A stretch of DNA of 64,000 nt. It comes from Myxococcales bacterium. GTDB lineage: Bacteria; Myxococcota_A; Polyangia; Fen-1088. Every line of letters begins with the position of its first letter. Within the stretch, counting starts at the first letter, position 1. A program made the position numbers and the translations under genes. Where the stretch lies: the NCBI GenBank assembly GCA_031423255.1, contig JANPFD010000022.1:6704-70703 (forward strand), read 5' to 3'. Shown piece after piece: positions 23,335 to 61,808 of the stretch. The notes below the pieces were generated by a model that was not told the origin of the DNA, did no database searches, and worked only from the letters and a program-made list of their open reading frames with translations.

Positions 23335-24822
23335 TCAGCGCAGGTTCAGGCGGGCGCGCGTCGCCCAGAAGTTCCCGGTGTCGGCGATCTCGCCCAGGCC
23401 CGGGGCGGCGCGGGTGTCGATTCCCAGCGCGTCGCCCAGCGTGACCCAGAGTGAATCGATCTTCTGGCCGGCGTACACCGTTCCGGGCAGGCCGCTGCGC
23501 CCGAACAGCTCGGGCGATCCGGCATGGCCGGAGGTGCCGCCCGAGACGCGCAGGTGGCGTCCCGGTGTGATGATGCCGCCGCCACGTCCGGCCACGACGA
23601 TCGGCAGATCATGCACGTCGTGGGTGGCTCCGTGAGACATGGAGCCGGTGTAGACGGCCATGCAATTGTCCAGCAACGTGCCGCCGCCTTCGCCCGGGAG
23701 CGCCTTCAGCTTGCCCACCACACGGGCGTAGCGCTGGGTGTTCCACTCCTCGATGCAGCGCAGAGCGAGGATGCGCTCCTCGGCGGTGGCGGGGCTGTTC
23801 GGCGCCTCGCCGTCGACGGTGCCCTGGCTGTAGTGCGAAAGACCGTTGTGGTATTCGTGCGACCCCAGCACGAACTTCAGCCGGTCGCGCCTGGCAGCGT
23901 CGAGTGGCGTGCCGTCGCCGAGCGTCGCCGGTGGGGTGATGAAGCCGTACTTCATGCGCACCGTCTCGATGTCCGACTGCCAGGTGACCAGGCGGGTGAG
24001 ATCGCACTGGAACGCCAGCACCACCAGGTCGCCGATGAGATCCATCTGCTTCTCGAGGCTGCTGCCCGCCGGATAGGCGAAGGCGGCCTCCTGGTTCTTG
24101 CCACAGGTCGACGGCGGCAAGGCCAGCTGGCGCTGCACCTCCGTCAGACTCTGGAGGTATTCCGCCAGGCGCGCCTGATCCTCGCGGCCAAGCCGGGTGT
24201 TCAGGGACTTCGCCTGCGGCAGCACGAAATCCACCAGACCCTTGCGGTGGCGGATGGCGCGCGCAGCGGCTTCCATCGCCGCCGGGTCGGAGGCGCCGAA
24301 CAGGTCCAGGTACATCGCGTGCGGATCGGGGTTCTGGGGAGTGACGATGTAGTTCGTCGTCGAGGTCCAGGACATGAACATCTTCGACGCCTGGCCGTTG
24401 AGCGTCCGCCGTGTGCTCAGCTCGAGGGACTTGCGCCGTAGGCCCAGCTTGCGCAGGCGCGAGGAGAGGAACTGATCGTACGAAGGGCGGGCGACGATCT
24501 TGTCTTGCGACGTCGGACCGCCAGTCAGCATCTCGGCCTGGGGAGAGTGCGCGTCCTGCCCGGATGCTCGGTCGTGGTTGTCGATGCCCGACAGCACCAG
24601 GAGGTCCGATTTGTACGGATCGAGCGAACGGAGCGTCGGCGCGAGCGAGAACGGCATCTCCGGCACCGACGAGACCATCGATCGGCGGTAAAAGCCGTTC
24701 GGCGTGTTGAAGATCAAGAGCCGCACCGGACGGGCCTGGGCGCGTGCCTCCATGACTTCGAGGAACGGCAGCGCCAGGGACAGGCCGCCGCCGCGGAGCA
24801 TCGTCCGGCGTGAGAGCTTCAT
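23335..24822 (-). CDS. DUF1552 family protein with twin-arginine (Tat) signal - module A partner
   Basis: MKLSRRTMLRGGGLSLALPFL Tat motif. Conserved FQCDLTRLVT and C-terminal HDVHDLPIVVAGRGGG shared with three paralogs in this window. ATG 24822 overlaps the upstream stop. Confidence 0.85.
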   Translation of the reverse strand: MKLSRRTMLRGGGLSLALPFLEVMEARAQARPVRLLIFNTPNGFYRRSMVSSVPEMPFSLAPTLRSLDPYKSDLLVLSGIDNHDRASGQDAHSPQAEMLTGGPTSQDKIVARPSYDQFLSSRLRKLGLRRKSLELSTRRTLNGQASKMFMSWTSTTNYIVTPQNPDPHAMYLDLFGASDPAAMEAAARAIRHRKGLVDFVLPQAKSLNTRLGREDQARLAEYLQSLTEVQRQLALPPSTCGKNQEAAFAYPAGSSLEKQMDLIGDLVVLAFQCDLTRLVTWQSDIETVRMKYGFITPPATLGDGTPLDAARRDRLKFVLGSHEYHNGLSHYSQGTVDGEAPNSPATAEERILALRCIEEWNTQRYARVVGKLKALPGEGGGTLLDNCMAVYTGSMSHGATHDVHDLPIVVAGRGGGIITPGRHLRVSGGTSGHAGSPELFGRSGLPGTVYAGQKIDSLWVTLGDALGIDTRAAPGLGEIADTGNFWATRARLNLR

Positions 24823-26822
24823 GGCGTCCCTCCCCGGCGGGAGCGGAAGCTGCGGCCCGTCACCACCCGCCGCACCAGTTCCTTGAACGGGACGCGGTTG
24901 GCATCGGCAGACACCTGGTGCACGCCGCAGGCCTCCTGACCCGGGACCTGACGCCCGAGCGCGTAGACCATCAGACGTCGGCTGGCGCAGTTTCCGAGCG
25001 CCTGCTTGCCGGCCAGCACCTTCGCCAGCTGGGTGTGGTCCCTGAACGTCTCGCCCGTCGGCAGGTAGCCGCTGGCGTCCACCGGATTGCGCTTTGGCCC
25101 CTCGACGGTGCGGTATTTGCCCTGCGGACCGAAGTGCTCGAGACCGAAGCCGATCGGCTCCATGTTGGCGTGGCAGGAGATGCAGGTGCCCTGAGCGTGC
25201 ATCAACATCTGTTCTTTCTTTGGCAGGTCGAGGTTCCGGACCTTGTCGATGAGGGATTCCACCTCGGGCGGCGGCGGCGGTGGCGCCGAGCAGAGCAGGT
25301 TGTCGAGCACGTAGTGGCCGCGGATGACGGGCGCGGTCTCGATGTCGGGCGAGGACAGGGTGAGGAAGGCGGCCTGGGTCAGGATGCCGCCGACGCGCGC
25401 CGTACCCGCCGTCGGGACCTTGGCGAAAGCGGGGTCGCCCGCCGGCAGGCCGTAGTGCGTCCGCAGGGCGGCATCGACGAAGGTGAAGTCGGCGTCGACG
25501 AGGCGTGCGACCGGAAGCTGTGGGTTCGACAGAAGCTCCTGCATGAACAGCTCTGTCTCCTTCGCCATGCTGGTCCGCAGCGCCGGTGCGACCGTGTCCT
25601 CGTTGTCCAGCTCGCCGAGCCGCAGCCACTCGCGCGCGAATCCGCGCAGAAGCGCGCTCCGGCGCGGGCTGGCGTAGAGCCGGTCGAATTGAGCGGTCAG
25701 CACCTGCGCGTTTTTCAGCTGGCCCATGCCTGCCAGCCGGAACAGCTCGTCGTCGGGCATCGAGCTCCAGAGGAAGTAAGAGAGGCGCGTCGCCAGTTCG
25801 TGGTCGCCGAGGGCGCGTACCCCGGTGGCACCCGCGGGATCCAGCTCCACCTGGTACAGGAAGCTCGGCGTCAGCAGCACCGACTGGAACACCAGCTTCA
25901 TCCGCTCCTCGAAGATGGTGCCGAGAACGGTCTTGTCGTACTGGCCGAGCATCTCGGTCACCTCGGTAGCCGTGGCCGGCCGGCGGTAGGCACGCGGCAG
26001 GAAGCGCTCGAGGATCTCCTGCGCGCAGGCGCGCTCGTTGCCGGCAATCGGGCGCGAGCAGGCCATGGTCCTGGCGTAGGCGGCGTTGGTGGCGGCGCCG
26101 GCGAAGAAGGTGTCGACCGCGCGGATGCTGCCGTCGATCAACCCCTTGGTCAGCGTGTCGTTGATGAGATTCGAGGCCTCGTCGACGCGGGTGAAAGAAT
26201 AGGCGGTGGTCTCCGCGGGCAGCGCGGCGGCAGAGTTGAAGGTGTCGGGCAGGCCGAGCAGATCGCGTACGGTGTTGGCGTATTCGGTGCGCGTCAGGCG
26301 GCGCAGACCGTTCCAGGCGACGTCCGGCTCGCCGGGCAAGGAGTAGATCCACTCGCGGACGATGCGCAGCTCGTCGTTGGTCATGCGCGTGCCCGACGGC
26401 GGCATCTCCAGCGCCATGATCCGCTCGTCCATCCGGACCAGGCGGTCCATCTGTGCGCGCGCCGTGGCCTCATTTGCCAGGAGCTTGTCCATGGCGAACT
26501 TCCCGGACGGCGCCACACCCGAATGGCAGGTCACGCAATTGCGCACGAGGATCGGTTTGACCTGCTGCTCGAAGCTGATGGAGCTGTTGTCGACGCACAG
26601 CTTGGCCGGGACGAGCGTCGGGTTGCTCACCGGGTCGTTCGGGGGCGGAGGCATCCCGGGGCCCGGAGGGTTGAGGGGATTCAGCGGGTTCAGAGGATCG
26701 ACGGGCGGCGTCCCGTCGCTGTCGCCCGGGTCGCCTCCGATGTCGCCCACGCATGACGCAAGGATCGCTGCCAACCCCAAACAACAAAGATGGCGCACGG
26801 GCACGAGGCTCTCGTAAGGCAA
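24819..26822 (-). CDS. DUF1592/DUF1588/DUF1587/DUF1585-family protein with N-terminal CxxCH (Planctomycete cytochrome-c-like, PSCyt) - module A
   Basis: Lipoprotein-like N-terminus. CVTCHSG near the N-terminus, C-terminal CISCHANMEPIGFGLEHFG. Family hallmark ...TRTEYANTVRDLLG... and ...AYRRPATATEV.... Confidence 0.85.
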   Translation of the reverse strand: MPYESLVPVRHLCCLGLAAILASCVGDIGGDPGDSDGTPPVDPLNPLNPLNPPGPGMPPPPNDPVSNPTLVPAKLCVDNSSISFEQQVKPILVRNCVTCHSGVAPSGKFAMDKLLANEATARAQMDRLVRMDERIMALEMPPSGTRMTNDELRIVREWIYSLPGEPDVAWNGLRRLTRTEYANTVRDLLGLPDTFNSAAALPAETTAYSFTRVDEASNLINDTLTKGLIDGSIRAVDTFFAGAATNAAYARTMACSRPIAGNERACAQEILERFLPRAYRRPATATEVTEMLGQYDKTVLGTIFEERMKLVFQSVLLTPSFLYQVELDPAGATGVRALGDHELATRLSYFLWSSMPDDELFRLAGMGQLKNAQVLTAQFDRLYASPRRSALLRGFAREWLRLGELDNEDTVAPALRTSMAKETELFMQELLSNPQLPVARLVDADFTFVDAALRTHYGLPAGDPAFAKVPTAGTARVGGILTQAAFLTLSSPDIETAPVIRGHYVLDNLLCSAPPPPPPEVESLIDKVRNLDLPKKEQMLMHAQGTCISCHANMEPIGFGLEHFGPQGKYRTVEGPKRNPVDASGYLPTGETFRDHTQLAKVLAGKQALGNCASRRLMVYALGRQVPGQEACGVHQVSADANRVPFKELVRRVVTGRSFRSRRGGTP

Positions 26823-42624: not shown

Positions 42625-42663
42625 CGTCAACGCCGGGGCAGGGTGGCGTGGTATTGACGGGTC

Positions 42664-43854: not shown

Positions 43855-44875
43855 ACAGGCGCTCGCGGTCGCCGTCCTCCTGCTGGTGGCCGCTCCCGCC
43901 AGCGCGACCGTCGTGTGGCGGGGCGACTTCGAGACCGGCACCACGAAGCAATGGACCAGCCTCCTCTTCGGTCCGCACATCACGGTCGTCGGCACGCCCG
44001 TGCGCCACGGCAAGTTCGCCGCCCGGTGCGAGGTACACAACGAGGACAAGTGGGGCAACGGCCTGCGCCGGGTCGAACTTTCCTACACGCCCACCGCGGC
44101 CACCTTCGAGAACTCCGAGCGCTACTACGCCTTCAGCGTCATGCAGGCGCCGGACATGCCGCTGTCGCAGACGTACCGGACTCACATCGGATACTGGGAG
44201 TCGTACCCGCTCTACAAGCAGGTGATGGACTTCAGCGTCGACAAGAACCAGCTGGTCTTCAGCGCCTGGCTGAACAAGCCCGACGGCAGGCCGGGCGGCA
44301 CGCTGTTCCGGGGCTCGTTCGCGCCCGGCCGATGGCACGATTTCGTGCTGCACGTGAAGTGGTCGACGGACCCCGGCGTCGGTTTCATCGAGCTCTGGTA
44401 CGACGGCGTCCGCGTGGTCAACAAGATCGCCATCCAGACCATGCACCTCGAGGCGGGCACGAAGTATCCGAGTTTTTTCCACATCGGCGTGCTGCGCGGA
44501 GATTTCGAGGCCGAGCCCGTGGCGGTGTTCGTCGACAGCGTGATGGACGCGACCACCTTCGATGACGTCGCCCTCTTGGCCGTTCCGCCCGACGGGGGCG
44601 CGCCGATGCCCGACGCCGGCGCCTCTCGCGCGGACGCCAGCAGCACACCTCCACGCGACGCTGTTTCCGGCGCCGAGGTCCGCCGCCCACCCGACGGCAG
44701 CAACCCGACCTACAACTTCGACACGGGAGGGACATTCGGCGATGACCCGCTGACCCCGCTCGACGACAAGCCGTACACCATCAAGACCGGCTGTTCCTTC
44801 GGGGCGGGATCGCCCGGCGGGTGGTTGTTCCTGCCCCTGGCCTTCGCGTTGTTGTTGCTACGGCGCCGACGCTGA
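43838..44875 (+). CDS. Secreted protein with C-terminal MYXO-CTERM / GlyGly-CTERM-like sorting tail
   Basis: Signal peptide LAVAVLLLVAAPASA. C-terminus TGCSFGAGSPGGWLFLPLAFALLLLRRRR (Cys, GG, TM helix, Arg cluster). GTG start 43838, in frame with track ORF 43730... Confidence 0.6.
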   Translation: MSARGRQALAVAVLLLVAAPASATVVWRGDFETGTTKQWTSLLFGPHITVVGTPVRHGKFAARCEVHNEDKWGNGLRRVELSYTPTAATFENSERYYAFSVMQAPDMPLSQTYRTHIGYWESYPLYKQVMDFSVDKNQLVFSAWLNKPDGRPGGTLFRGSFAPGRWHDFVLHVKWSTDPGVGFIELWYDGVRVVNKIAIQTMHLEAGTKYPSFFHIGVLRGDFEAEPVAVFVDSVMDATTFDDVALLAVPPDGGAPMPDAGASRADASSTPPRDAVSGAEVRRPPDGSNPTYNFDTGGTFGDDPLTPLDDKPYTIKTGCSFGAGSPGGWLFLPLAFALLLLRRRR

Positions 44876-44914
44876 CACCATCCCGCGGAGCGCGGCCTGC
44901 TACACTTCGCGCGC

Positions 44915-46045
44915 TTGGAAGCGCACCGTCGGTTGCTCGCGGCCCTGCTCACCCCGCCTTCACCCGCGGTGCTGATCGCCTATCAGGAGCCGCTGGCAGT
45001 CCTTGAGCTGCCGGAGGAAGGAACCGGCCTCGTGGTGCTGGACGAAGCCGGCGCGACGCCCGAGGAGTTGCGGCAGCGGCTGGATCGCGTCTTCGCCGCG
45101 CACCAGGGCGGCGTACTCATCGCCGTGGTCACCGGCGGAGGACCCGAGCTTCGCCCCGTGCTCGAGCAGGCGGACAGGGAGGCCCACAACCGGAACCGCC
45201 TCGGCCTTTATCACCTCGACCGTCTGGCCCAGCTGACCCGGGTCGCGGGCCGACGCCTGAAGCTGCTGGAGAAGGCGAACCTCGCGGGCGTCGCTCCGTT
45301 CTCCGCGGCCGACGCTGCCGCTCTCATCGAGCGCGGTCGAAAAGAGCGCGAGGAGGCCGCCGCGTTCGCACAAAGGCTGCACGCTCGCTTTCCGCACGTG
45401 ACCACGATCCTGCTCGCCGCCTGCGTGGTGATGTACGGGCTGACGTTGCACTGGCGGGCAGGTGGGGAGGCCATGGGCGCGAACAGCGCCTCCCTCGTGC
45501 GCGAGGGACAGGTCTGGCGCCTCCTGTCTCACGCCTTCCTGCACGGCAACAACGCCCACCTGATCATGAACATGATCGGGCTCCACAGCTTCGGCGGGTT
45601 TCTCGAACGCATGCTCGGTTGGCGGCGTTACCTGGTGCTGTATGGCCTGTCGGCGCTCGGTGGCGGCATCGCCAGCGCGCTCGTCGCCAACAATCCGGCA
45701 TCGGTCGGCGCCTCGGGTGCGCTGTGGGGGCTGATGCTGGCAGGGTTTGCGGTGGCGCGTCAGCGGCAGAGCGCCATCCCTGCGCGCATCGCCGCGGGCC
45801 TGCGACAGCGGTTGCTGGTCGTGCTGGGGATAAACACGCTGCTGTCATTCATCCCCGGCATCGATTTTTCCGCCCACTTCGGTGGCGGCATCGTCGGGTA
45901 CCTGCTGGTCCGGACGGGGCTACCCCCGGAGGGAATCGCCCTGCGGCTGGCTGCCCCCGTGGTGGCCTTGATGCTCGCCGGCTCCGTGTTTCTGGCCCTG
46001 GCAACGGGTCAACCTTGGGCTCAAGGTTCTCACCCGTTCGGGTGA
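44915..46045 (+). CDS. Rhomboid-family intramembrane protease with ~150-aa N-terminal cytoplasmic domain
   Basis: GASGALWGLM (GxSG) and FSAHFGGGIVG (His). TTG start. Begins 39 bp after the sorting-tail protein. Confidence 0.7.
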   Translation: MEAHRRLLAALLTPPSPAVLIAYQEPLAVLELPEEGTGLVVLDEAGATPEELRQRLDRVFAAHQGGVLIAVVTGGGPELRPVLEQADREAHNRNRLGLYHLDRLAQLTRVAGRRLKLLEKANLAGVAPFSAADAAALIERGRKEREEAAAFAQRLHARFPHVTTILLAACVVMYGLTLHWRAGGEAMGANSASLVREGQVWRLLSHAFLHGNNAHLIMNMIGLHSFGGFLERMLGWRRYLVLYGLSALGGGIASALVANNPASVGASGALWGLMLAGFAVARQRQSAIPARIAAGLRQRLLVVLGINTLLSFIPGIDFSAHFGGGIVGYLLVRTGLPPEGIALRLAAPVVALMLAGSVFLALATGQPWAQGSHPFG

Positions 46046-46163: not shown

Positions 46164-47885
46164 ATGACAGTACGTACCTTCTGTCTCGGAGTTCTGGCGC
46201 TGGCCGCTGGCTGCACCGGCGTGGTCGGCGGCGGTGGCGGAGGTGATGAACCAGGGGGCGATGTAACGAATCCTCCTCCCGGGGGTGGTGGCAGCGGCGG
46301 CAGCGGTCCCGATGGCGTCAAGCCGCCCGACGTCGTCAACCTGTGCAAGGGCGTGACCACGCAGGCTGCGCCCGCTCCGGTTCGACGCTTGACCCGCCGC
46401 GAGTACAACAACGCCATTCGCGACCTCCTGAACGACACCGCGGTCCCGACCCCGGCCCGCGACTTCGCGCTGGATGACCACCTCGGCCTGTTCGAGAACA
46501 ACGCCGGCTCTCCCGCGACGGTCCTCACCACCACCCAGTACGCCGAGACGGCCGAGACGCTGGCGCGCAACGCCGTGACGAGGAAGCTCGCCATGATCGT
46601 GCCGTGCGCGAACGCCGCCGGCGACGACACCTGCGCCCGCGACTTCATCAAGAACTTCGGCAAGCGCACTTACCGCAGGCCATTGACCGACGTCGAGGTG
46701 AACCGCCTGTTCAACGTGTACAACGTCGCCAAGGGCACCGGCGGCTATGCGAACGGTGTGCGCCTGGCGCTGCAGACGATGCTGCAATCCCCCGTCTTCC
46801 TGAACCACATCGAGAAGGGCGTCGCGCCTGCGGTGGGCGCCACGGTGGCGGCGCTCACCCCCTACGAGATGGCCTCGCGGCTGTCGTTCTTCCTGTGGAG
46901 CACGATCCCGGATACGGCGCTGATGACCGCGGCGGACGCCAACCAGCTCGGCACCCCGGCCGAGATCGAGGCTCAGGTCACGCGCATGCTCGCCTCCGAC
47001 AAGGCCAGGTCGGGCGTCTACACCTTCTTCTCGCAGTGGCTGGAACTGGACAAGCTGGGAGCCGCTGACCGCAATGCCACGATGTTCCCGATGTGGACCA
47101 ACGCCCGGAAGTTCGTCCGCGCCGAGACCGACATGTTCATCAACGAGACCATCTGGAAGGGCGACGGCAAGCTGACGACGATGCTGCTGGCCCCGTACTC
47201 GTACGTGAACAGCACGCTGGCGGCGCTCTATGGCGTCCAGGGCGTCACCGGCGATCCGCTGGTCAAGACCGATCTCAACCCGATGCAGCGGGCCGGTCTG
47301 TTGACGCAGTCGTCGGTCCTCGCGACCACCGCCGCCTTCGACAGCACCTCGCCGGTGCATCGCGGCCTCCTCGTTCGCGAGCGCTTCCTGTGTCAAGTGA
47401 CGCCGTCGCCGCCGCCGGACGTCGACGTGAACATCCCGCGCGCCGATCCGAAGATGACCACGCGCGAGCGGTACGCCAGGCACCAGAGCGAGCCGTACTG
47501 CGCGGGCTGCCACAGGCTGATGGACTCGATCGGCCTCGGCTTCGAGAGCTACGATGCGATCGGCAAGTTCCGGACGATCGAAAATGGGAAGACCATCGAC
47601 GCCACCGGTGAGGTCGTGGCCTCTCGCGACGTGGACGGCCCGTTCAACGGCGCCGTCGAGCTGGCGAACAAGGTGGCGAAGAGCAGCGAGGTCCGCGAGT
47701 GCATGACCCAGATCTGGCTGTCCTACGCCACGGCGAATCTCACCTCGGACCTCGCCTGCACGGTGGCGCGTCTCACCACGGACTTCAACAACGCAGGCTC
47801 CGACTTCCGCAAGCTGATCCTGGCCATCGCGAAGAGTGACGCCTTTCGCAGCCGGCGAGCCCTCTCGAAGGAGGTGTGCCAATGA
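46164..47885 (+). CDS. DUF1592/DUF1588/DUF1587-family lipoprotein (short form, no N-terminal CxxCH) - module B
   Basis: LALAAGC lipobox, Gly-rich linker. RRLTRREYNNAIRDLL, KRTYRRPLTDVEV. C-terminal CAGCHRLMDSIGLGFESYD. Confidence 0.8.
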   Translation: MTVRTFCLGVLALAAGCTGVVGGGGGGDEPGGDVTNPPPGGGGSGGSGPDGVKPPDVVNLCKGVTTQAAPAPVRRLTRREYNNAIRDLLNDTAVPTPARDFALDDHLGLFENNAGSPATVLTTTQYAETAETLARNAVTRKLAMIVPCANAAGDDTCARDFIKNFGKRTYRRPLTDVEVNRLFNVYNVAKGTGGYANGVRLALQTMLQSPVFLNHIEKGVAPAVGATVAALTPYEMASRLSFFLWSTIPDTALMTAADANQLGTPAEIEAQVTRMLASDKARSGVYTFFSQWLELDKLGAADRNATMFPMWTNARKFVRAETDMFINETIWKGDGKLTTMLLAPYSYVNSTLAALYGVQGVTGDPLVKTDLNPMQRAGLLTQSSVLATTAAFDSTSPVHRGLLVRERFLCQVTPSPPPDVDVNIPRADPKMTTRERYARHQSEPYCAGCHRLMDSIGLGFESYDAIGKFRTIENGKTIDATGEVVASRDVDGPFNGAVELANKVAKSSEVRECMTQIWLSYATANLTSDLACTVARLTTDFNNAGSDFRKLILAIAKSDAFRSRRALSKEVCQ

Positions 47886-49156
47886 AAATGGTCCGTCGCT
47901 ATTCGCCCCGACGTGAGTTTCTCCAGGGCGTGGGCCTCGGCGCCTTCGCGTTGCCGTTCCTGCGCGCGACCGAGGGGCGCGCCCAGACGCAGCCCAAGCG
48001 CCTGGTGGTGTTCTCCAGCCCGAACGGCACGGTGATGAACGACTTCTTCCCGGTGACGGGGAACGTGTACGGACGCATCCTCAAGCCTCTGGAGCCGCTC
48101 AAGAGCAAGATCGCCGTCCTGCGCGGCATCAACATGGAGACGGCCTACAAGACGCCGATCCCCAAGGACCACAACCCGGATTACCGGAACATGCTCACGG
48201 CGCGCCAGCCGACGGGTGATGGCACCAATTTCCGGGTCGAGGGCATCTCCATCGATCAGCACATCGCCAACGCCATCGGCACGAGGACCAAGTTCGCCTC
48301 GCAGCAACTGGGGGTGCTGGCCGTCTCGTATCAGATCTCCAGCCGTGGGGTCGGCCAGCCGATCAGCCCCGAGAACAGCCCGTACAAGGCGTTCACCCGC
48401 CTGTTCGCGGGAGTGACCGCATCGCCCACCGAGCTGGATCGCCTCCGCCGCGAGAAGAAGAGCGTCATCGACGCGCTGATTGGCGAGACGACCGACCTGC
48501 GCTGCGCGCTCGGCCGCGAAGAGAAGCCGAAGTTCGACCTCCACCTCGAGTCGCTGCGCGAGCTGGAGCGTAGCCTGGACATCCCCGTGGGTGCCGGCTG
48601 CCGCGCACCGGATCAGGGCGCGCCCGTCCCCGTCGACACCGCCAATGCCCAGCAGATCATGAAGCTGCAGATTGACATCCTGGCAGCGGCCATCGCCTGT
48701 GATCTCACCCGGGTCTTGACGCTCCAGCACGGTCAGGGCCGCCTGCCATACAGCTGGCTCGGCATCAATCAGAGCCATCACGGCATCTCGCACGGCAGCG
48801 AGGGGGTCACCGCGACCCAGGCGCAGCGCACCGAGTGGCTGGTCCTGATCGAGACCTGGATAGCGTCGCAGTTCTTCTATCTGCTGCAGAAACTGGACGC
48901 CATTCCCGATCCGCGCGGCACCGCGCTCGACAACACCGCGGTGCTATGGGCCCACGAGCAGTCGAACGGCGGCAGCCACCAGCGCAAGGACATGCCGTAC
49001 GTGCTGGCCGGTGGCCTCTTCCAGGGCGGACGCGCCGTCAACTTCGGCGGCAAGGCCCACAACGGCCTGCTCATCAGCCTGGCCAACGCCGTCGGCGTCC
49101 CCACGGCGGAGTTCGGCGACCCGGACTTCTCCCGGGGGCCACTGGCCGGGCTCTAA
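47876..49156 (+). CDS. DUF1552 family Tat-signal protein - module B partner
   Basis: SPRREFLQGVGLGAFALPFL Tat motif. IACDLTRVLTLQ. Start overlaps the upstream gene by 10 bp. Confidence 0.85.
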   Translation: MPMKMVRRYSPRREFLQGVGLGAFALPFLRATEGRAQTQPKRLVVFSSPNGTVMNDFFPVTGNVYGRILKPLEPLKSKIAVLRGINMETAYKTPIPKDHNPDYRNMLTARQPTGDGTNFRVEGISIDQHIANAIGTRTKFASQQLGVLAVSYQISSRGVGQPISPENSPYKAFTRLFAGVTASPTELDRLRREKKSVIDALIGETTDLRCALGREEKPKFDLHLESLRELERSLDIPVGAGCRAPDQGAPVPVDTANAQQIMKLQIDILAAAIACDLTRVLTLQHGQGRLPYSWLGINQSHHGISHGSEGVTATQAQRTEWLVLIETWIASQFFYLLQKLDAIPDPRGTALDNTAVLWAHEQSNGGSHQRKDMPYVLAGGLFQGGRAVNFGGKAHNGLLISLANAVGVPTAEFGDPDFSRGPLAGL

Positions 49157-49158
49157 CC

Positions 49159-50454
49159 TTAGACCAGCCCCGCCAGCCGGCCGGTGCTGTCGCCGAACGT
49201 ATCCACCGGCACACCGATCCGGTCCAGCAGGGAGACGTACAGGTTGTTCAGCGGGAGCTTCTCGTACCTGAGATGGCGGCCCGGCTTGACGGTGCCGCCG
49301 CCGCGCCCGGCCAGGACCACGGGCAGGTCGTCGTGGTTGTGGCGGTCGCCGTCGCCGATGCCGCTGCCGTAGACGATCATCGAGTTGTCCAGCAGCGTGC
49401 CGTCCCCCTCGCCGATCGACTTCAACTTCTCCAGCAGGTAGGCCAGTTGCGTGGCGTGGAAGCGGTTGATGCGCGAGATCTTCTGCAGCTTCTCGGGGTT
49501 GCGGCCGTGGTGGGACAGCTCGTGGTGCCCCTCGGGGATCTCCAGGTGCGGGTAGCTCTTGTTGCTGCCGGCGTTCGCTACCAGGAAGGTGGCGATGCGG
49601 GTGATGTCGCTCTGGAACGCCACCACCAGCAGATCGCACATCAGGCGGATGTGTTCCTGGTTGTCGCTCGGGATCTCCTCCGGCCGCCCGAAGGCAGGCG
49701 CGTCGACGGGCGGCATCTGCCCGAAGCGCGCGATTCGCTGCTCGATCTCGCGCACCGCCGTCAGGTACTCGTCCATCTTGCGGTTGTCGGTCTTGCCCAG
49801 CCGAGGCTTGAGGGACTCGAGATCCCGGGCCACGAAGTCGAGGATGCTGCGCTTCTGGCGATCGCGCTTGGGGTCCACACCCATGCCGAACAGGCGGTCG
49901 AACACCAGCGACGGGTCCACCTCCTTCGCCAGCGGCATCGTGTCTGACTTCCATGCCAGGTTCGACGAGTAGGCGCAGGAGTAGCCCGAGTCGCAGTTCC
50001 CGGACTGCGCGCCGCGATCGACGCCCAGCTCCAGAGACGGCAGGCGCGTCAGATGGCCCAGCTTCTGCGCCGCCACCTGGTCCGCCGAGATCCCGTTCTT
50101 GATGTTCGCGCCGTTGGTCTTGTGGGGGTGCGCGCCGGTCAGGAACGCGCCCAGAGCCCGCGCGTGGTCGCCCGGTCCGTCGCCGAGCGCGAAGGCATTC
50201 CGTTGCTCGAGGCCCGTGAGGACGGTGATCTCGTCCCGGACACTGCGCAGCGGCTCCAGGATCGACGGCAACGTGAAGTCCGTCCCCGCCTTGCTGGGCG
50301 TCCAGTCCGGCATGTGCACGCCATTCGGGACGTAGAGGACGGCGAAACGCAGCGGCGCCCTGGGACGCTTCGGCGCTGCCATCGCCTCGAGCCACGGCAA
50401 CGAGACCCCGATTCCCACCCCACGCAGCAATGTCCGTCGGGATAGCGACTTCAT
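49159..50454 (-). CDS. DUF1552 family Tat-signal protein - module C partner
   Basis: MKSLSRRTLLRGVGIGVSLPWL. FQSDITRIATFL. HDDLPVVLAGRGGG. ATG 50454 overlaps the upstream stop. The N-terminal 171 codons of the track ORF are rejected. Confidence 0.85.
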   Translation of the reverse strand: MKSLSRRTLLRGVGIGVSLPWLEAMAAPKRPRAPLRFAVLYVPNGVHMPDWTPSKAGTDFTLPSILEPLRSVRDEITVLTGLEQRNAFALGDGPGDHARALGAFLTGAHPHKTNGANIKNGISADQVAAQKLGHLTRLPSLELGVDRGAQSGNCDSGYSCAYSSNLAWKSDTMPLAKEVDPSLVFDRLFGMGVDPKRDRQKRSILDFVARDLESLKPRLGKTDNRKMDEYLTAVREIEQRIARFGQMPPVDAPAFGRPEEIPSDNQEHIRLMCDLLVVAFQSDITRIATFLVANAGSNKSYPHLEIPEGHHELSHHGRNPEKLQKISRINRFHATQLAYLLEKLKSIGEGDGTLLDNSMIVYGSGIGDGDRHNHDDLPVVLAGRGGGTVKPGRHLRYEKLPLNNLYVSLLDRIGVPVDTFGDSTGRLAGLV

Positions 50455-52709
50455 GGTGTGACCTCTCCGCGCCTCTTCAAGAATGGATCGCTGGTGACGA
50501 TCGCCAGCACCAGGCTGGAGAAGCTGTCCCCAGCCTCGAGCGTGCGATCCGCGATGTCGTCGATGGCCGCCCGGTCGAACGGCTCGGTGCCGCGGCCCGT
50601 GGCGTAGGTCAGCATCTTCTGCGCGAACGAGCGCCGGAACGCCGCCTCCTTGGTCTTCAGGACCGCCTTCAGCTCGGTCGGGCCGCGGAACGACTGGCCG
50701 TTTGGCAGCACCCCCGACGAATCGACCGGTGTGCCGCTCTCGTCCTCTTCCGTGCGCCACCCGCCGACGGCGTCGAAGTTCTCGAGACCGAAGCCGAGGG
50801 GATCCATCTTGCGGTGGCAGACGGCGCAGTTCGGGTCGGCGCGGTGCTGCTCCAGTTGCTGGCGCATCGTTCCCGCCAGCTGCTTCTTCTTCGTGTCCTC
50901 GATCAGGTCCGGGACGCCGGGTGGCGGTGGCGGTGGTGGCGTCCCGAACAGTTGCTCCAGCACCCACTTGCCCCGTTTCACCGGCGACGTCCGCGTCGGG
51001 TTCGACGTCACCGTCAGCACGCTGGCCTGGGTCAGCACGCCGCCGCGGGGCGTTCCCGCCGTGGAGACGCGACGGAACTCCGATCCCTCGACACCGTCGA
51101 TGCCGTAGTGGCGCGCCAGGCGCTCGTTCAGATAGGTGAAGTCCGCCTCGAGGAACGTGCCGAGGGGCAAGTCCTCGCGCATCACCGCTTCAAAGAAGAG
51201 CTCGGTCTCCTTCATCATCGACGCTCGCAGGTTGTCGTCGAACCCGGGGAAGCGCCGCCGCGACGGCCTGATGCTCGACAGGTTCCGGACCTGCAGCCAC
51301 TGGGTGGCAAAGTTCTCGACCAGGGCGTGGGCCTTCCGGTCCTGCAGCATCCGCTTGACCTGCGCACCCAGCACCTCGGGCTGGTGCAGGCTGCCGTCGG
51401 CGGCCTGCCGGAAAAGTTCGTCGTCCGGCATTCCGCTCCACAGGAAATACGACAGCCGTGAAGCCAGCTCCCAGTCGTTGATCGGGTGCGCTTCGCCGGC
51501 CGGATCGCCCGGATCCAGCTCGACCCGGAAGACGAAGTGCGGCGAGACGAGGATGGCCCGCAGCGCCACCTGCATCCCGCGCTCGAAGGTGTCGCCCTCC
51601 TCGACCGCCTGCTCGACGAACGTCACCAGCCGGTCCAGTTCCGGGCGGGCGACGGGACGCCGGTAGGCGCGCGTCGCCAGGGTCGCCAGGAATTCCCGCG
51701 CGTCGTCGCGGTAAGTCTCGGCGCCGGGGTGTCGAGGGATGATCCGGGTGTGACTGTCGGGCAGCGCGCGCGCCTTCACCCTCAGTGGCCCCTCGATGCG
51801 CAAAAAATCGATCGAAACCTGGCGCTTGGGCGCCGGATTCGCGAACGCCAGCTCGATCCGGTGCCGCCCCCCGTCGACGGCGAACTTGGTCGTGTACACC
51901 GACGAGCCGCGCACCTCGATGGTCTTTTTCTCCTGGCCATCCACCTTCAGGACAAGCCGCGCCCCGCGCCCCGCGGCCTTCACCTTGAACATGTACTCGG
52001 CCTGGGTCGGGAACTCGTGATGCGCGCGCACCGAGCCGGCGGCACTCATCACCAGCTTGCCGTTCTTGATCGCGCTGCCGGCGGGGGTTGGCGCCAGCTT
52101 CTCCACCTCGATCGTGTCGCCCCGGAACTTCGGGTCGATATCGGCGACGATCACCTTCTCGGCGATCCGGTCGGCGGCCGCGAGATAGCGCTCGACGAGC
52201 AGCGGCGGCATCGATAGCACGTCGCCGATGTTGTCGAAGCCGTAGCCGACGTCGTCGGAGGGAAACTGGTTCGCGGGCTTGAGGTCGACGCCCAGCAGAT
52301 CGCGGATGGTGTTGTTGTACTCGGCGCGGTTCAGCCGCCGGATGGTCACCCGACCCGGGTCGCGCTTGCCGTCCGCCGCGGCGCGGCTCTGCGCCCAGTC
52401 GATCCAGGCCATCAGGCTTTGGACCTCGGCCGCGGTCGGTTGCGGCTTCTCCTCGGGCGGCATCTCGCGTGCCTCCAGCCGCTCGGCCACGGTCTGCCAG
52501 ACGTGGATGTTCTTGAGCAACGCCGTCTCGTCCGCCCCGCGGAACGCCTCGAAGCTCAGGTCCCCTTTCTTTTGGTCACCCCCGTGGCAGGACCCGCAGT
52601 ACTTGTCGAGCAGGGGGACCATCTCGCGACCGAAGTCGGCCGCCTGGGCACTGCCACCGGCGAGCACCACAGACGCTACGCGGCACAAAGAAGCAGCCAG
52701 GCGAATCAC
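50451..52709 (-). CDS. DUF1592/DUF1588/DUF1587/DUF1585-family protein with N-terminal CxxCH (PSCyt-like) - module C
   Basis: Signal peptide. CGSCHGG at the N-terminus. RRLNRAEYNNTIRDLLG, AYRRPVARPELDRL. C-terminal CAVCHRKMDPLGFGLENFD. Confidence 0.85.
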   Translation of the reverse strand: MIRLAASLCRVASVVLAGGSAQAADFGREMVPLLDKYCGSCHGGDQKKGDLSFEAFRGADETALLKNIHVWQTVAERLEAREMPPEEKPQPTAAEVQSLMAWIDWAQSRAAADGKRDPGRVTIRRLNRAEYNNTIRDLLGVDLKPANQFPSDDVGYGFDNIGDVLSMPPLLVERYLAAADRIAEKVIVADIDPKFRGDTIEVEKLAPTPAGSAIKNGKLVMSAAGSVRAHHEFPTQAEYMFKVKAAGRGARLVLKVDGQEKKTIEVRGSSVYTTKFAVDGGRHRIELAFANPAPKRQVSIDFLRIEGPLRVKARALPDSHTRIIPRHPGAETYRDDAREFLATLATRAYRRPVARPELDRLVTFVEQAVEEGDTFERGMQVALRAILVSPHFVFRVELDPGDPAGEAHPINDWELASRLSYFLWSGMPDDELFRQAADGSLHQPEVLGAQVKRMLQDRKAHALVENFATQWLQVRNLSSIRPSRRRFPGFDDNLRASMMKETELFFEAVMREDLPLGTFLEADFTYLNERLARHYGIDGVEGSEFRRVSTAGTPRGGVLTQASVLTVTSNPTRTSPVKRGKWVLEQLFGTPPPPPPPGVPDLIEDTKKKQLAGTMRQQLEQHRADPNCAVCHRKMDPLGFGLENFDAVGGWRTEEDESGTPVDSSGVLPNGQSFRGPTELKAVLKTKEAAFRRSFAQKMLTYATGRGTEPFDRAAIDDIADRTLEAGDSFSSLVLAIVTSDPFLKRRGEVTP

Positions 52710-58694: not shown

Positions 58695-58710
58695 CCGGAA
58701 GGTACTTTAC
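58695..58710. promoter_or_regulatory. Perfect 16-bp palindrome CTTTACACGTGTAAAG in divergent SDR / DUF1592-module-D intergenic region; candidate LacI-family operator
   Basis: Read directly. Left half CTTTACAC is the exact reverse complement of GTGTAAAG. It sits 0-50 bp from both start codons, with the LacI gene adjacent. Confidence 0.4.
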
Positions 58711-58740
58711 ACGTGTAAAGCCACCGAGTATAGTGGCTCG

Positions 58741-60375
58741 ATGGTCAGCAGTCGTCTCGCGCTCCTGATCCCCGCCTTGTTCCTGTCGGCGGCATCGTGC
58801 ATGGGCCAGATCGCCGGCGGCGATGACGGTGAAACCAGCGTCGAGCGAGCGACGCCCGGATCGATCCGTGTCTGGCGTCTCACGACCCAGCAGTACGACA
58901 ACACCGTTCGCGATCTTTTGGGGGACACCAGCAGGCCGGCTCGCCTTTTCACGCCGGACATCGGCGGCACCGGCTTCACGAACAACGCCGATCTGCTCGG
59001 AGTCAATCCGGCGCAGGCGGCCGAGTTCGCGGCAAGCGCGGCGCGACTCGCTTTCGATGCGGTCACCTCCAGGCTCGGCCGCATCTTCCCTTGCCCCGCC
59101 TCCCAGCTGACCGATGCCGGGTGTGCGCGCCAGTTCATCGAGACCTTCGGCCTTCGCGCTTTCCGGCGCCCGCTGGGCGCGGACGAGGTGGCCGCTTACC
59201 TCGGGCTCTACGCCCAGGGTTCACAGACGATCGACGCGACAGCGGGGCTGTCGCTGGTCATCGAAACGATGCTGCAGTCCCCGCACTTCCTCTACCGGAG
59301 CGAGATTGGCGATGGCCGCCCGGACTCTGGCGGTGAAGTGCGTCTCACCCCCCACGAGCTCGCCAGCGCTCTGTCGTATCACTTCGTGGGCAGCATGCCC
59401 GACGAGATCCTGTTCGCGGCGGCCAGCAGTGGCAGCCTGAGCACACCGGCGGGCCTGGGCGCGGAGGTCGAACGGCTGGCGGCCAGGGACGATGCACGCG
59501 CCCCGATGCTCGACTTTTACCGACAGCTCCTGGACTACGACGACGTCGGAAGTGTCACCCGCGACCCGAAGCTGTTCCCGAAGTTCGACTCGGTTCTGGC
59601 GAGCATGCAGCGTGAGACGCAAACGTTCATCGAGAAGAACGTCTTCGAGGGTGATGCTCGACTCGATACGTTGCTGACGGCGCCGCACAGCTACATCGAC
59701 GCCAACCTCGCTCCCATCTACCGGCTGCCCAAGCCGAACGGAACGACGATGGTGCGGGTCGACCTCGATCCCGGCCAGCGCGCCGGACTGCTCACCCAGC
59801 CCGGTTTCTTGACCATCCACTCCCTGCCCGACGAGACGTCGCCGCCGCGCCGGGGCAAGTCAGTGCTGGAGAAGATTCTCTGCCTGCACATCCCGCCACC
59901 GATCGACAACATTCCCGATCCGCCGTCTCCCGCGGGCAAGGAGAGCACCCGGCAGAAGTTCGAGCGCCTCACCGGTCCTCCTGTGTGCATGGGGTGCCAT
60001 CGGCTACTCAACCCCGCCGGCTTCTCCTTCGAAGCTTATGACGTCGTCGGGGCGTGGAGGACGGTCGACAACACGCTCCCCGTCGACACCCGGGTCGACC
60101 TGACTGGCATTCCCGGTGTCGACGGCCCGGTGGCCGGCGCCGTGGACCTGGTCAGGAAGATCGCCCAAAGCCGCGAGGCGGGGGAGTGCCTTGCGCGCCA
60201 GACGGTGCGGCATGCCTTCGGCCGCGAAACGGGCAGTGACGACGACGGACTCGTCTCAAAGATGTTAGCGCGCTTTCAAGCGACTGGCGGCAATGTGCGC
60301 GAACTGTTCGCGTCCGTGGCCGGCACCCGGGCCTTTACCCACCGGCGTATGGGGTTTTCGGCAGGTGTGCAATGA
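58741..60375 (+). CDS. DUF1592/DUF1588/DUF1587-family protein (short form) - module D
   Basis: Signal/lipobox LFLSAASC. WRLTTQQYDNTVRDLLG, AFRRPLGADEV. C-terminal CMGCHRLLNPAGFSFEAYD. Confidence 0.8.
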   Translation: MVSSRLALLIPALFLSAASCMGQIAGGDDGETSVERATPGSIRVWRLTTQQYDNTVRDLLGDTSRPARLFTPDIGGTGFTNNADLLGVNPAQAAEFAASAARLAFDAVTSRLGRIFPCPASQLTDAGCARQFIETFGLRAFRRPLGADEVAAYLGLYAQGSQTIDATAGLSLVIETMLQSPHFLYRSEIGDGRPDSGGEVRLTPHELASALSYHFVGSMPDEILFAAASSGSLSTPAGLGAEVERLAARDDARAPMLDFYRQLLDYDDVGSVTRDPKLFPKFDSVLASMQRETQTFIEKNVFEGDARLDTLLTAPHSYIDANLAPIYRLPKPNGTTMVRVDLDPGQRAGLLTQPGFLTIHSLPDETSPPRRGKSVLEKILCLHIPPPIDNIPDPPSPAGKESTRQKFERLTGPPVCMGCHRLLNPAGFSFEAYDVVGAWRTVDNTLPVDTRVDLTGIPGVDGPVAGAVDLVRKIAQSREAGECLARQTVRHAFGRETGSDDDGLVSKMLARFQATGGNVRELFASVAGTRAFTHRRMGFSAGVQ

Positions 60376-61808
60376 CCACCAGCCGTCGTGCCTTCTCGAG
60401 AATCCTGGGTACGGGCGCCTTCGCCGTGCCCCTGCTCTGGCGCTATGGCCGAACGATCGCCGCCGGTCCCTCCCCGTCGGGTCCCAGGCGGCTGCTGATC
60501 TTCTGGAACCCGCAAGGGAACTGCTCCGGTCTGCCCGTGAATGGCGTCGACGCATTCTGGCCCACCGGTACCGAGAAGGACTTCAAGCTCAGCCGGATCC
60601 TCGCTCCGCTCGAGCGCCACAAGAAGGATTTGCTGCTGCTCAAGGGGTTCAACGACTGGGCGACCATGGCCAGGCCGTTGTGCTCACCGATCGTGAGCGA
60701 TGGCGAGCACGGGTTTGGCACCATGTGCCGCCTGACGAACACGTGCCCGACGACGGCGAGCGTTGGTGGAGCGGCACCTCGCCAGTGGGGAGGCGGCATC
60801 TCCATCGACCAGGCGATCAGCCAGACCGTGGGTGCGGATACGCCCAGGCCGTCGCTCGAACTGATCGGCAGTGCCAACAAGAACTCCAACCACCGCGGGT
60901 TCATCAGCTACTCGGGCGCGGGCCGCCCCGTCATTCCGCAGGCGAGTCCGCTCGGCGCCTACGATTCTCTCTTCGGCGGCAGCACCGGGCTGGCCGGCGA
61001 TCCCGCGAGGGTGAAGGCATTGCGGGCGATGCGCAAAAGCTCCCTCGACCACATTCTCTCGGAGATCGCGCGCGTGCGCAGCCGGTTGCCCGCCTCCGAA
61101 CGAGCGAAGATGGACGGCCATTTCGAGGCCGTCCGCGTCCTCGAGCGCGACCTCGACGACCGGGCGCCGACCGTCTCCTGTGACCGCCAGCGGCCGCCTT
61201 TCCCGGCCGATCCCATCCCAACCTTCCCCACCCGGCATGAGTTGCACTTCCGAACCATCGCCGCTGCCTTCGCCTGCGATCTCACGCGTGTGGCCACGTT
61301 CATGGCCGCGTCCGGGGGAGGAGACACAGCCCCGGACCTCCGGGCGTTCATGCCGGACTGGCAGACGAACTATCACTCCACCGGACACGCGTCGGGCGGC
61401 AACTCCGACGGCGGCGGGAACAACGCTGCGGTTCGCGACCGCGCGCTCGAGGTGATGATCCGGGTCAGCACCTACTACGCCGACCAGCTGGCAAAATTCG
61501 TCGACGCATTGAAGGCCATTCCAGAAGGCGCCGGTACGGTGTTCGACAACACCGTGATCCTATGGTGCAGCGAAATGTCGCACGGGAACCACGGCAACAG
61601 CTCCGTGCCCTACGTCGTCATCGGCGGCGGCTGGCACCTCCGCACCGGGCGCTTCTTGGACCTGCCCACGTACAGCAAGTACGACTTCAGCAACAAATCC
61701 GGCACGCCGCTGGTGTTGATGGCGAACGCCATGGGGCTGCCAATCAGCAGCTTCGGGCGCGCCGACTGGTGCGACGGTCCCGACAAACTGACTGCAATCC
61801 GCGGCTAG
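60372..61808 (+). CDS. DUF1552 family Tat-signal protein - module D partner
   Basis: MTTSRRAFSRILGTGAFAVPLL Tat motif. FACDLTRVATFM. ATGA overlap with the upstream gene. Confidence 0.85.
   Translation: MTTSRRAFSRILGTGAFAVPLLWRYGRTIAAGPSPSGPRRLLIFWNPQGNCSGLPVNGVDAFWPTGTEKDFKLSRILAPLERHKKDLLLLKGFNDWATMARPLCSPIVSDGEHGFGTMCRLTNTCPTTASVGGAAPRQWGGGISIDQAISQTVGADTPRPSLELIGSANKNSNHRGFISYSGAGRPVIPQASPLGAYDSLFGGSTGLAGDPARVKALRAMRKSSLDHILSEIARVRSRLPASERAKMDGHFEAVRVLERDLDDRAPTVSCDRQRPPFPADPIPTFPTRHELHFRTIAAAFACDLTRVATFMAASGGGDTAPDLRAFMPDWQTNYHSTGHASGGNSDGGGNNAAVRDRALEVMIRVSTYYADQLAKFVDALKAIPEGAGTVFDNTVILWCSEMSHGNHGNSSVPYVVIGGGWHLRTGRFLDLPTYSKYDFSNKSGTPLVLMANAMGLPISSFGRADWCDGPDKLTAIRG

Follow-up and report, generated by a model that had tools for sequence, protein, structure and literature searches.

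Four clustered copies of the PSCyt3/PSD-DUF1552 gene pair in a probable Myxococcota genome, with a predicted heme-c motif in every large partner

The function of PSCyt/PSD proteins and of their DUF1501 and DUF1552 partners has stayed unsolved ever since the domains received their names in 2004 (Studholme et al., 2004; cited in PMC2754498 and PMC3542564), and few unknown gene families of Planctomycetota and Verrucomicrobiota are as strongly expanded as these proteins and their partners. In Planctomycetes and Verrucomicrobia, the pairing of PSCyt3/PSD proteins with DUF1552 proteins has been described as Group III, a module present in up to 17 copies per genome whose function is given as unknown in the supplement to that work (He et al., 2017; PMC5615132, Text S1). 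A further module, composed of DUF1501 and PSCyt1/PSCyt2/PSD1 (DUF1549/DUF1553) proteins, is expanded in PVC bacteria and has been proposed to play a role in electron transfer (Kamneva et al., 2012; PMC3542564).

The stretch of 64,000 nucleotides analysed here (the window) contains four copies of the first of these modules, known yet of unsolved function, and places PSCyt3/DUF1552 pairs in a probable Myxococcota genome too. A GC3-based gene model combined with Pfam searches called four co-oriented gene pairs, A to D (Table 1), at the positions given in the original prediction. Firstly, A1, B1, C1, and D1 each carry the domains PSD3-PSD5-PSD4-PSCyt3-PSD2 (DUF1587, DUF1595, DUF1592, DUF1588, and DUF1585, respectively) in the same order, all five models scoring above their gathering thresholds (E 1e-9 to 6e-49), while A2, B2, C2, and D2 all match PF07586 (DUF1552/HXXSHH; E 1e-48 to 3e-104); the profile searches thus bear out the domain identities and order proposed earlier. 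Secondly, the overlap reported for the paired genes proved to be a 4-nt ATGA start/stop overlap on the same strand at all four junctions, each with a GGAGG-like (SD-like) motif 7-10 nt upstream. Two subtypes coexist in the window, one with an N-terminal cytochrome c domain in the large protein (pairs A and C) and one without (pairs B and D). The original description of the system as uncharacterised holds in that no published biochemical function was found; the module itself had been described in 2017, in the supplement to PMC5615132.

The window pairs share with the Group III pairs the same domain set and order, a DUF1552 gene directly downstream, occurrence several times in one genome, and a CBM inserted into some of the large proteins. 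They differ in the unusual clustering of three to four pairs and in their host, probably a Myxococcota MAG to judge by the named relatives of B2. Pairs B, C, and D span 15.6 kb, and the clustering of pairs in the window exceeds chance; the tail-to-tail stop codons of B2 and C2 are 2 nt apart, not 3 bp as first stated. The GH106-like and TIGR03790 genes adjoining pair C were considered as a fifth pair and ruled out by their identities. Among the 49 window ORFs that the scan covered, all but five short ones at 7-8.3 kb and 13.9-14.9 kb, Pfam detected no DUF1501, DUF1549, or DUF1553 gene, no NCBIfam model matched any of the eight pair proteins, and Rfam and tRNA scans of the window returned no match.

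Table 1. Positions of the four gene pairs, their domains and motifs, and adjoining genes in the window.
Feature	Position	Strand	Basis or remark
A1, large subunit, 667 aa; ILASC (lipobox-like); cytochrome c-like domain at the N-terminus, its CXXCH at residues 96-100; further CXXCH at residues 547-551 (25170-25184)	24819..26822	-	Pfam, motifs, alignment
A2, DUF1552, 495 aa, Tat-like MKLSRRTMLRG	23335..24822	-	Pfam E 1.3e-48
Pair A context: GS-like ligase, Fe-alcohol dehydrogenase, Peptidase_C26 (PuuD-like), aldehyde dehydrogenase	18665..23311	-	Four genes, each with a 4-nt overlap with the next; 23 nt behind A2
B1, large subunit, 573 aa; lipobox LAAGC; CXXCH at residues 446-450 (47499-47513)	46164..47885	+	Pfam, motifs, alignment
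B2, DUF1552, 424 aa, Tat-like SPRREFLQG	47882..49156	+	Pfam
Pair B context: alpha/beta hydrolase, esterase, polysaccharide lyase (PF14099), rhomboid	41827..46045	+	
C1, large subunit, 752 aa, Sec signal	50451..52709	-	NCBI start 52670 gives 739 aa
C1 PSCyt1/cbb3-type cytochrome c domain, CXXCH + MPP	52371-52634	-	
C1 inserted CBM36-like module, predicted beta-sandwich	51777-52124	-	After PSD3
C1 invariant CXXCH, in helical PSD5-PSD4-PSCyt3-PSD2	50814-50828	-	
C2, DUF1552, 431 aa, Tat-like MKSLSRRTLLRG	49159..50454	-	
Pair C context: LacI-family regulator	56819-57874	-	
Pair C context: GH106 alpha-L-rhamnosidase-like	54040-56796	-	
Pair C context: TIGR03790 protein	52753-54036	-	
D1, large subunit, 544 aa; SAASC (lipobox-like); CXXCH at residues 416-420 (59986-60000)	58741..60375	+	Pfam, motifs, alignment
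Sigma-70-like site	58706-58734		Immediately upstream of D1
D2, DUF1552, 478 aa, Tat-like MTTSRRAFSR	60372..61808	+	Pfam
Pair D context: IPT/TIG-domain ORF	61825..63999	+	16 nt behind D2; extends past window end

The proximity of the pairs, including the 2-nt junction between B and C, had been taken to indicate recent local duplication, and proximity is all that speaks for a recent tandem duplication in this genome. Protein identity between the copies lies at 30-39% among the large proteins and at 26-32% among the DUF1552 proteins, with A2 the longest and most divergent of the latter, and DNA matches between copies are confined to motif-sized stretches of 41-156 nt, with no long similarity. Far closer relatives of pairs B and C are found elsewhere: B2 is 77% identical to a protein of another MAG, and its named relatives are Myxococcota, while for C2 a protein on a different NCBI contig reaches 73% identity and Isosphaeraceae/Singulisphaera proteins reach 60-64%. 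In a neighbour-joining tree the four copies occupy four deep branches, and the closest readable orthologue contigs (n = 2) carry single pairs and no cluster. The identities, the tree, and the DNA comparison together refute recent duplication, which we regard as highly improbable, and by the same sequence comparisons the four copies are ancient paralogues. Because the copies are old, the window is silent on how the family expands. Clustering of this kind is rare elsewhere: at loci with a C-type DUF1552 gene in other genomes, a second DUF1552 gene lies within 6 kb in only 2 of 80.

The pairing itself is conserved across genomes, as had been proposed: in a sample of 80 loci drawn from Planctomycetota, Verrucomicrobiota, Chthonomonadia, and Poribacteria, PSCyt3/PSD and DUF1552 genes are adjacent at 64-68. 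The identities of the two subunits correlate weakly across loci (r = 0.34), over too narrow a range to be informative. For about 10 of the 80 C-type DUF1552 genes, the surrounding 6 kb contain housekeeping genes but no PSCyt3 gene, indicating that a partner in cis is not always required. A search of the 80 loci for a conserved third gene found none. Several genes near the pairs are related to glycans (GH106, polysaccharide lyase, and esterases), and the LacI, GH106, and TIGR03790 genes share their strand with pair C at successive gaps of 22, 3, and 43 nt. The neighbour genes of the window were not found at the orthologue loci, so the link to glycans is a local one. Pair A lies directly upstream of a gamma-glutamyl-amine (amine or amino-alcohol) catabolic gene set. 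A metagenome scan with A2 gave no match, and the one related contig found for A2 stops right behind that gene.

Analysis of the large proteins, which are mostly helical, revealed features that are new here: an invariant CXXCH in every large partner, a class-I cytochrome c domain predicted in A1 and C1, and a CBM36-like module in C1. The first of these, a predicted heme-c attachment motif, lies at the border of PSCyt3 and PSD2 in all four proteins, one such motif in each, and its residues C615, C618, and H619 are invariant in an alignment of 29 sequences. Alignment of the region surrounding this motif revealed no obvious sixth heme ligand. The assignment of the N-terminal domains of A1 and C1 to class-I cytochrome c follows from a CXXCH and a distal Met; in C1 this domain scores 32.8 bits against PSCyt1 (cutoff 22) and 27.2 bits against Cytochrome_CBB3 (cutoff 27), in A1 the score of 25.3 bits falls slightly below the Pfam cutoff, and the CxxCH and MPP columns are at least 90% conserved in the alignment. 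The CBM36-like module, a putative member of the CBM36/CBM60 type found in C1 only among the four large proteins, may bind carbohydrate. When C1 and C2 were compared with solved structures, both as single sequences and as profiles, no sequence match was obtained save a weak one to cytochrome c. Support for the extracytoplasmic location originally suggested can be found in the predicted export signals of both partners, lipobox-like in A1, B1, and D1 and of the Sec type in C1, together with the twin arginines of the DUF1552 proteins.

The DUF1552 family, which comprises 27,564 clusters at 50% identity, is marked by a twin-arginine motif together with four histidines that hardly vary, a signature likewise new here. 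In a set of 156 diverse members, mostly less than 50% identical to one another, H97, H311, H315, and H372 (numbered as in C2) are each kept in 99-100% and the twin arginine in 94%. The near-invariant residues of C2 are H97, H310/H311, H315, and H372, along with S123-x-D125-Q126 and D283-x-T285-R286, and some 15 polar residues in all, the four histidines included, are near-invariant across very diverse members. SRRxxL-type motifs are N-terminal in all four window proteins, and the start of C2 is the ATG at 50454, a placement by which its Tat-like N-terminus, MKSLSRRTLLRG, is regained; the Pfam TAT_signal model matches 6 of 28 homologues, and Tat export of DUF1552 proteins is predicted from the twin-arginine motif.

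The fold predicted for C2 is the alpha/beta fold of the alkaline-phosphatase (AP)/sulfatase superfamily. By secondary-structure co-linearity, the conserved residues N44, H97, H311/H315, D368 (replaced by H or N in paralogues), H372, and H394 fall in line with the AP/NPP ligands; on the same basis, we infer that the i,i+4 spacing of H311/H315 equals that of AP D327/H331 and that 'D-H-x8-LTG' occupies the place of the sulfatase CxPxRxxxLTG. In Pfam, DUF1552 matches none of Sulfatase, Phosphodiest, and DUF1501 at E up to 10, and alignment of the DUF1552 profile to an approximate Pseudomonas arylsulfatase sequence with hhalign paired only 14 columns at an insignificant 0.7% probability (LLDNSMIVYGSGIG with ELDNTFVLFMSDNG), no more than a lead. 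The characterised structural neighbours of DUF1552 are all hydrolases or transferases, and its LTG and (S/G)-(D/H/N)-G motifs are like sulfatase signatures. It is thus possible, if somewhat unlikely, that DUF1552 is itself a hydrolase or transferase, acting on phospho-, sulfo-, or phosphono-esters through an unusual His/Asp nucleophile, and that the role of the large protein lies outside redox chemistry, in anchoring, substrate binding, or activation, its heme being structural or regulatory. The CBM of C1, the GH106 and polysaccharide lyase neighbours, and a number of paralogues per genome that recalls sulfatase and GH expansions would suit such an activity, and the amine/amino-alcohol catabolic set behind pair A fits the cleavage of an ester of such a compound. 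However, the nucleophile position, where the helix following strand 2 starts, holds no conserved Ser, Thr, or Cys and instead carries D/E-H, with H97 at 99%; the CxPxR (C/S-x-P-x-R formylglycine) motif is absent from all four window copies; the putative ligand set is rich in His, not Asp; and the invariant CXXCH, with a cytochrome c domain added in many members, is hard to square with a plain hydrolase.

A different division of labour would place catalysis in the large heme protein, perhaps as a c-heme enzyme of the peroxidase or oxygenase kind whose coordination site is open, and leave DUF1552 as a non-catalytic accessory for substrate binding or complex stability. PbgA/YejM is a non-catalytic protein of the AP fold and provides a model for such a role. 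We consider this arrangement decidedly unlikely: the near-invariant polar residues, four histidines among them, and the predicted Tat export argue for a cofactor-bearing active site in DUF1552, and some DUF1552 genes have no PSCyt3 neighbour.

The reading that we favour, tentatively and at somewhat less than an even chance, is that the pairs encode an extracytoplasmic two-subunit metalloenzyme connected to a c-type heme, and that the paralogues serve different substrates, probably glycans. Each pair would be self-contained and translationally coupled, the four copies having diverged anciently, and the large protein and DUF1552 would form a 1:1 extracytoplasmic complex. DUF1552 would be the catalytic subunit, its AP scaffold bearing a metal centre rich in His that is presumably loaded in the cytoplasm, hence the Tat export. 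The large subunit, in turn, would anchor the complex, target it to substrate through a CBM, and connect the metal centre with a periplasmic electron-transfer chain by means of its heme c; the invariance of this heme partner is suggestive of catalysis-linked electron transfer, short of proof. Paralogues may represent substrate-specific variants, probably for glycans or ester/amine substituents of glycans, brought together in a neighbourhood for polymer degradation rather than born there by local duplication. More specific, and in our estimate unlikely, is the proposal that DUF1552 constitutes the catalytic subunit of an unrecognised enzyme class, in which the nucleophile and Asp ligands of the AP fold are replaced by a four-His transition-metal centre, loaded in the cytoplasm, that exchanges electrons with a dedicated c-heme subunit.

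We know of no redox enzyme on the AP scaffold, a point against the favoured reading; if the four-His redox reading were true, this would be the first. Tens of thousands of PSCyt3/DUF1552 pairs would then represent unexplored oxidative enzymes, directed by CBMs and acting on glycans or glycan substituents, a repertoire spanning Planctomycetota, Verrucomicrobiota, Myxococcota, and others, and by analogy possibly extending to PSCyt2/DUF1501 pairs. The predicted AP fold, the four-His signature, the conserved motif for Tat export, and the partner's invariant heme motif together yield a short list of testable chemistries, and the window offers local handles in pair C, with its own CBM36-like module behind the LacI/GH106/TIGR03790 set, and in pair A, ahead of the gamma-glutamyl-amine catabolic set.

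Comparison with known systems places the pairs among several partial counterparts. Members of the AP superfamily (type I sulfatases, NPP/ENPP, PafA, and phosphonate monoester hydrolase) are only 9-14% identical to DUF1552, with no sequence match in Pfam, NCBIfam, or PDB; DUF1552 differs from them in lacking a Cys/Ser/Thr nucleophile and CxPxR, in having His apparently in place of the usual Asp ligands, in an inserted helical hairpin of about 100 residues (residues 195-281), and in its predicted Tat export and obligate-looking heme-motif partner. The DUF1501 module is similar in that a large CXXCH-bearing, sometimes CBM-bearing protein adjoins a Tat-signal protein without known function, and different in the Pfam families of both partners; DUF1501, too, presumably belongs to the alkaline-phosphatase clan. 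SorAB sulfite dehydrogenase and FAD glucose/glucoside dehydrogenases combine a Tat-exported catalytic subunit with a Sec-exported cytochrome c subunit. Such periplasmic two-subunit dehydrogenases resemble the window pairs in their export routes, adjacent co-transcribed genes, and c-type heme partner, whereas the cofactors of their catalytic subunits are Moco, FAD, or FeS, on unrelated folds, making the likeness one of functional analogy only. Finally, Cbp2D of Cellvibrio japonicus (Branch et al., 2021; PMC8981238) is an extracellular protein in which a CBM, cytochrome c domains with a single CXXCH, and Pfam DUF1587 (PSD3) occur together, and it is a putative electron donor for LPMO. While PSD3 is the sole domain in common, with no PSD4, PSCyt3, and PSD2 core or DUF1552 partner described, Cbp2D sets a precedent for heme proteins that a CBM directs to the oxidation of glycans.

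Pfam searches on a gene model based on codon-position G+C, which places 54 genes in the window, bore out the original prediction of four two-gene modules, pairs A to D. Each large protein carries, in order, PSD3 (DUF1587), PSD5 (DUF1595), PSD4 (DUF1592), PSCyt3 (DUF1588), and PSD2 (DUF1585), all five above gathering thresholds in all four copies, while the partners match DUF1552/HXXSHH with E-values of 1e-48 to 3e-104. Raw ORF lists are crowded because the window has a G+C content of ~68%; the true start of C2 is the ATG at 50454, with which a Tat-like N-terminus is regained. The expected same-strand overlap of the two genes takes the form of an ATGA start/stop junction in 4/4 pairs, each preceded by a GGAGG-like motif, a predicted translational-coupling signature of the classic kind. 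Pairs B and C do lie tail-to-tail, their stop codons being separated by 2 nt rather than the 3 bp first given. A candidate fifth pair at 52753-56796 was rejected, its 918-aa product being a GH106-like rhamnosidase (54040-56796) and its 427-aa product a TIGR03790 protein (52753-54036).

Coordinates of the paired genes, as assigned with Pfam
Gene	Product	Position	Strand	Source
A1	large protein	24819-26822	-	Pfam
A2	DUF1552/HXXSHH	23335-24822	-	Pfam
B1	large protein	46164-47885	+	Pfam
B2	DUF1552/HXXSHH	47882-49156	+	Pfam
C1	large protein	50451-52709	-	Pfam
C2	DUF1552/HXXSHH	49159-50454	-	Pfam
D1	large protein	58741-60375	+	Pfam
D2	DUF1552/HXXSHH	60372-61808	+	Pfam

Recent local duplication, proposed originally as the source of the four copies, is contradicted by these data. 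Pairwise identity is 30-39% among the large proteins and 26-32% among the DUF1552 proteins, DNA-level matches are only motif-sized (41-156 nt), and closer relatives are found elsewhere: C2 is matched at 73% identity by a protein on another NCBI contig and at 60-64% by Isosphaeraceae and Singulisphaera proteins, while B2 has relatives at 66-77%; its named relatives, at 38-47%, belong to Myxococcota MAGs, which also points to a Myxococcota origin for the window. A neighbour-joining tree places the DUF1552 proteins on four deep branches, A with C and B with D. This split parallels that of the large partners, in which an N-terminal cytochrome c domain is present in A1 and C1 and absent from B1 and D1, and the genes of a pair therefore diverged together. 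The closest contigs examined, L081 (orthologous to C) and L083 (orthologous to B), hold one pair each among unrelated neighbours. Judged from sequence, the four copies are old paralogues rather than recent duplicates.

A scan of species-representative genomes yielded 80 loci with a C2-like (C-type) DUF1552 gene, two of them cut, mostly from Planctomycetota with some from Verrucomicrobiota, Chthonomonadia, and Poribacteria. As anticipated, the pair is kept together across genomes: DUF1552 is immediately preceded by the end of a C1-like gene in 64/80 loci under a strict test and in 68/80 by clustering. Around the pair, the 80 loci show no third conserved gene family and no recurrence of the window neighbours. 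Approximately 10 of the 80 genes lack a PSCyt3 gene within 6 kb (L012, L021, L037, L038, L050, L051, L064, L065, L071, and L073); these orphans, 55-60% identical to C2, adjoin housekeeping genes (rpoD, an hrpA-like helicase, pseudouridine synthase, Ldh_2), and their partner, if any, would be encoded elsewhere. Since a second DUF1552 lies within 6 kb in only 2/80 loci, the density of pairs in the window is unusual. In one of these two, from a Planctomycetota MAG (L080, 3192-12456), two PSCyt3/DUF1552 pairs converge tail-to-tail as B and C do, there with 193 nt between them. The family is large, with more than 8000 word-sharing homologues for each of C1 and C2, and 27,564 (E up to 1e-3) or 18,002 (E up to 1e-10) clusters at 50% identity in a DUF1552 profile search, the best 150 matches of which are all single-domain proteins of ~340-510 aa without fusions.

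Sequence searches matched DUF1552 to nothing in the PDB, NCBIfam, or other Pfam families. Among 156 aligned members, mostly below 50% mutual identity, conservation (C2 numbering) extends to R6-R7 (94%), P20 (97%), H97 (99%), H310 (92%), H311 (99%), H315 (99%), and H372 (100%), as well as G45, S123, D125, Q126, D283, T285, and R286. H97 stands at the N-terminal end of the helix that succeeds strand 2, with LTG after it, and (S/G)-(D/H/N)-G...H372 comes after a strand. Sulfatases carry CxPxRxxxLTG at the position matching H97-LTG, the DHG/DNG motif likewise follows a strand, and the alkaline phosphatase (AP) D327/H331 and NPP D210/H214 metal-ligand pairs share the i,i+4 spacing of H311/H315. From this co-linearity we infer that H97, H311/H315, and H372 correspond to AP-superfamily sites; hhalign of DUF1552 against an approximate arylsulfatase sequence gave an insignificant alignment. 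The 156 members share no conserved Ser, Thr, or Cys at the nucleophile position, and DUF1552 thus fails the defining test of a type I sulfatase or canonical AP/NPP. That DUF1552 is an ordinary esterase whose partner plays no redox role is a rival reading, somewhat less likely than the complex favored below. A conserved ALP(F/W)LE lies just after the twin arginines of all DUF1552 N-termini (C2 residues 15-25). Such conservation of P20 is unusual for a simply cleaved signal peptide, suggesting that this region may be retained or contact the partner protein.

Each large protein has one CXXCH at the PSCyt3/PSD2 border, invariant in 29 sequences; the additional N-terminal CXXCH...MPP cytochrome c domain exceeds Pfam cutoffs in C1 and falls just below them in A1. 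It is conceivable, if improbable, that this heme protein is itself the catalyst and DUF1552, with its near-invariant histidines, an accessory. By inspection, A1, B1, and D1 bear lipobox-like signals and C1 a Sec-type signal, which together with the conserved RR of DUF1552 agree with the extracytoplasmic location originally predicted. The structure model of C1 (pLDDT 84.9) comprises the cytochrome domain, the PSD3 region, an inserted beta-sandwich (approximately residues 183-298 in 739-aa numbering) that appears CBM36-like in the model, and a ~430-residue helical region.

Gene contexts in the window hint at polymer or substituent catabolism, but the orthologue loci examined do not share these neighbours. 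Beginning 23 nt past pair A, four genes, each sharing 4 nt with the next, encode a GS-like ligase (whose best NCBIfam matches, both sub-threshold, are type III GS and gamma-glutamylputrescine synthetase), an Fe-alcohol dehydrogenase, a Peptidase_C26/PuuD-like hydrolase, and an aldehyde dehydrogenase. These four resemble a gamma-glutamyl-amine type catabolic set, and with pair A (18665-26822, -) look like a six-gene operon tied to gamma-glutamyl-amine or amino-alcohol catabolism. The genes immediately upstream of pair A (26927-29984, -) encode a Ser/Thr kinase-beta-propeller fusion (Vgb_lyase/DUF5050-like) and an RCC1-repeat protein, an arrangement also seen in the near-identical Logan contig L084 (611-3659). 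Between pairs A and B, genes for an MFS transporter, a histidine phosphatase, a UPF0158 protein, and a CobW-family GTPase (33817-37364) bear, as far as can be seen, no relation to the modules. Upstream of pair B are an alpha/beta hydrolase, an esterase, a PF14099 polysaccharide lyase, and a rhomboid. Of the two rhomboid protease genes in the window (37361-38224 and 44933-46045), one lies 118 nt upstream of B1, and rhomboids also adjoin the closest C-type pair in L081 (6597-7802) and L082 (2515-3720); as only 1/80 other loci has this arrangement, the link may be coincidence. On its own strand, pair C is preceded by a LacI regulator, then GH106, then TIGR03790; the successive gaps measure 22, 3, and 43 nt. 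The best sigma-70-like site in 44.8-64 kb by consensus match (TTTACA-17-TATAGT, 10/12; 58706-58734, +) stops 7 nt short of the D1 start codon and would imply a leaderless or near-leaderless mRNA. An IPT/TIG-domain protein begins 16 nt after pair D; its ORF (61825-63999) leaves the window and includes a stretch of lower G+C (0.59 at 62001-64000, vs. ~0.66-0.70 elsewhere).

The pairing was already on record, as originally noted, and its multiplicity is published too: up to 17 copies per MAG are reported, with function given as unknown (He et al., 2017, PMC5615132). Full-text searches to mid-2026 under every DUF/Pfam name of the module turned up no functional or structural study. The window is thus a further case of a known module, new and unusually dense, probably in Myxococcota. 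The family is a real and long-standing puzzle, which this locus alone, with old paralogues in an uncultured organism, makes little easier to test. New here are the AP-superfamily assignment, the signature of four histidines (H97, H311, H315, H372) and RR, the CBM36-like insert, and the rejection of recent duplication. An electron-transfer role was proposed for the sister DUF1501/PSCyt2 module (Kamneva et al., 2012, PMC3542564) and repeated by He et al. (2017, PMC5615132); our proposal of a heme-wired DUF1552 extends that idea.

The module is a self-contained two-gene unit encoding two co-translated proteins, predicted to be exported, and combines a partner of predicted AP fold bearing the four histidines and conserved RR with an invariant CXXCH and optional cytochrome c/CBM modules. 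We tentatively favor a heterocomplex in which DUF1552 would be the catalytic subunit, loaded with metal in the cytoplasm and exported by Tat, while the large subunit would anchor the complex, target the substrate, and, via its heme c, link the metal center to an electron-transfer chain. SorAB-type periplasmic oxidoreductases are composed of an exported catalytic subunit and a cytochrome c subunit, and the layout proposed for PSCyt3/DUF1552 would be the same.
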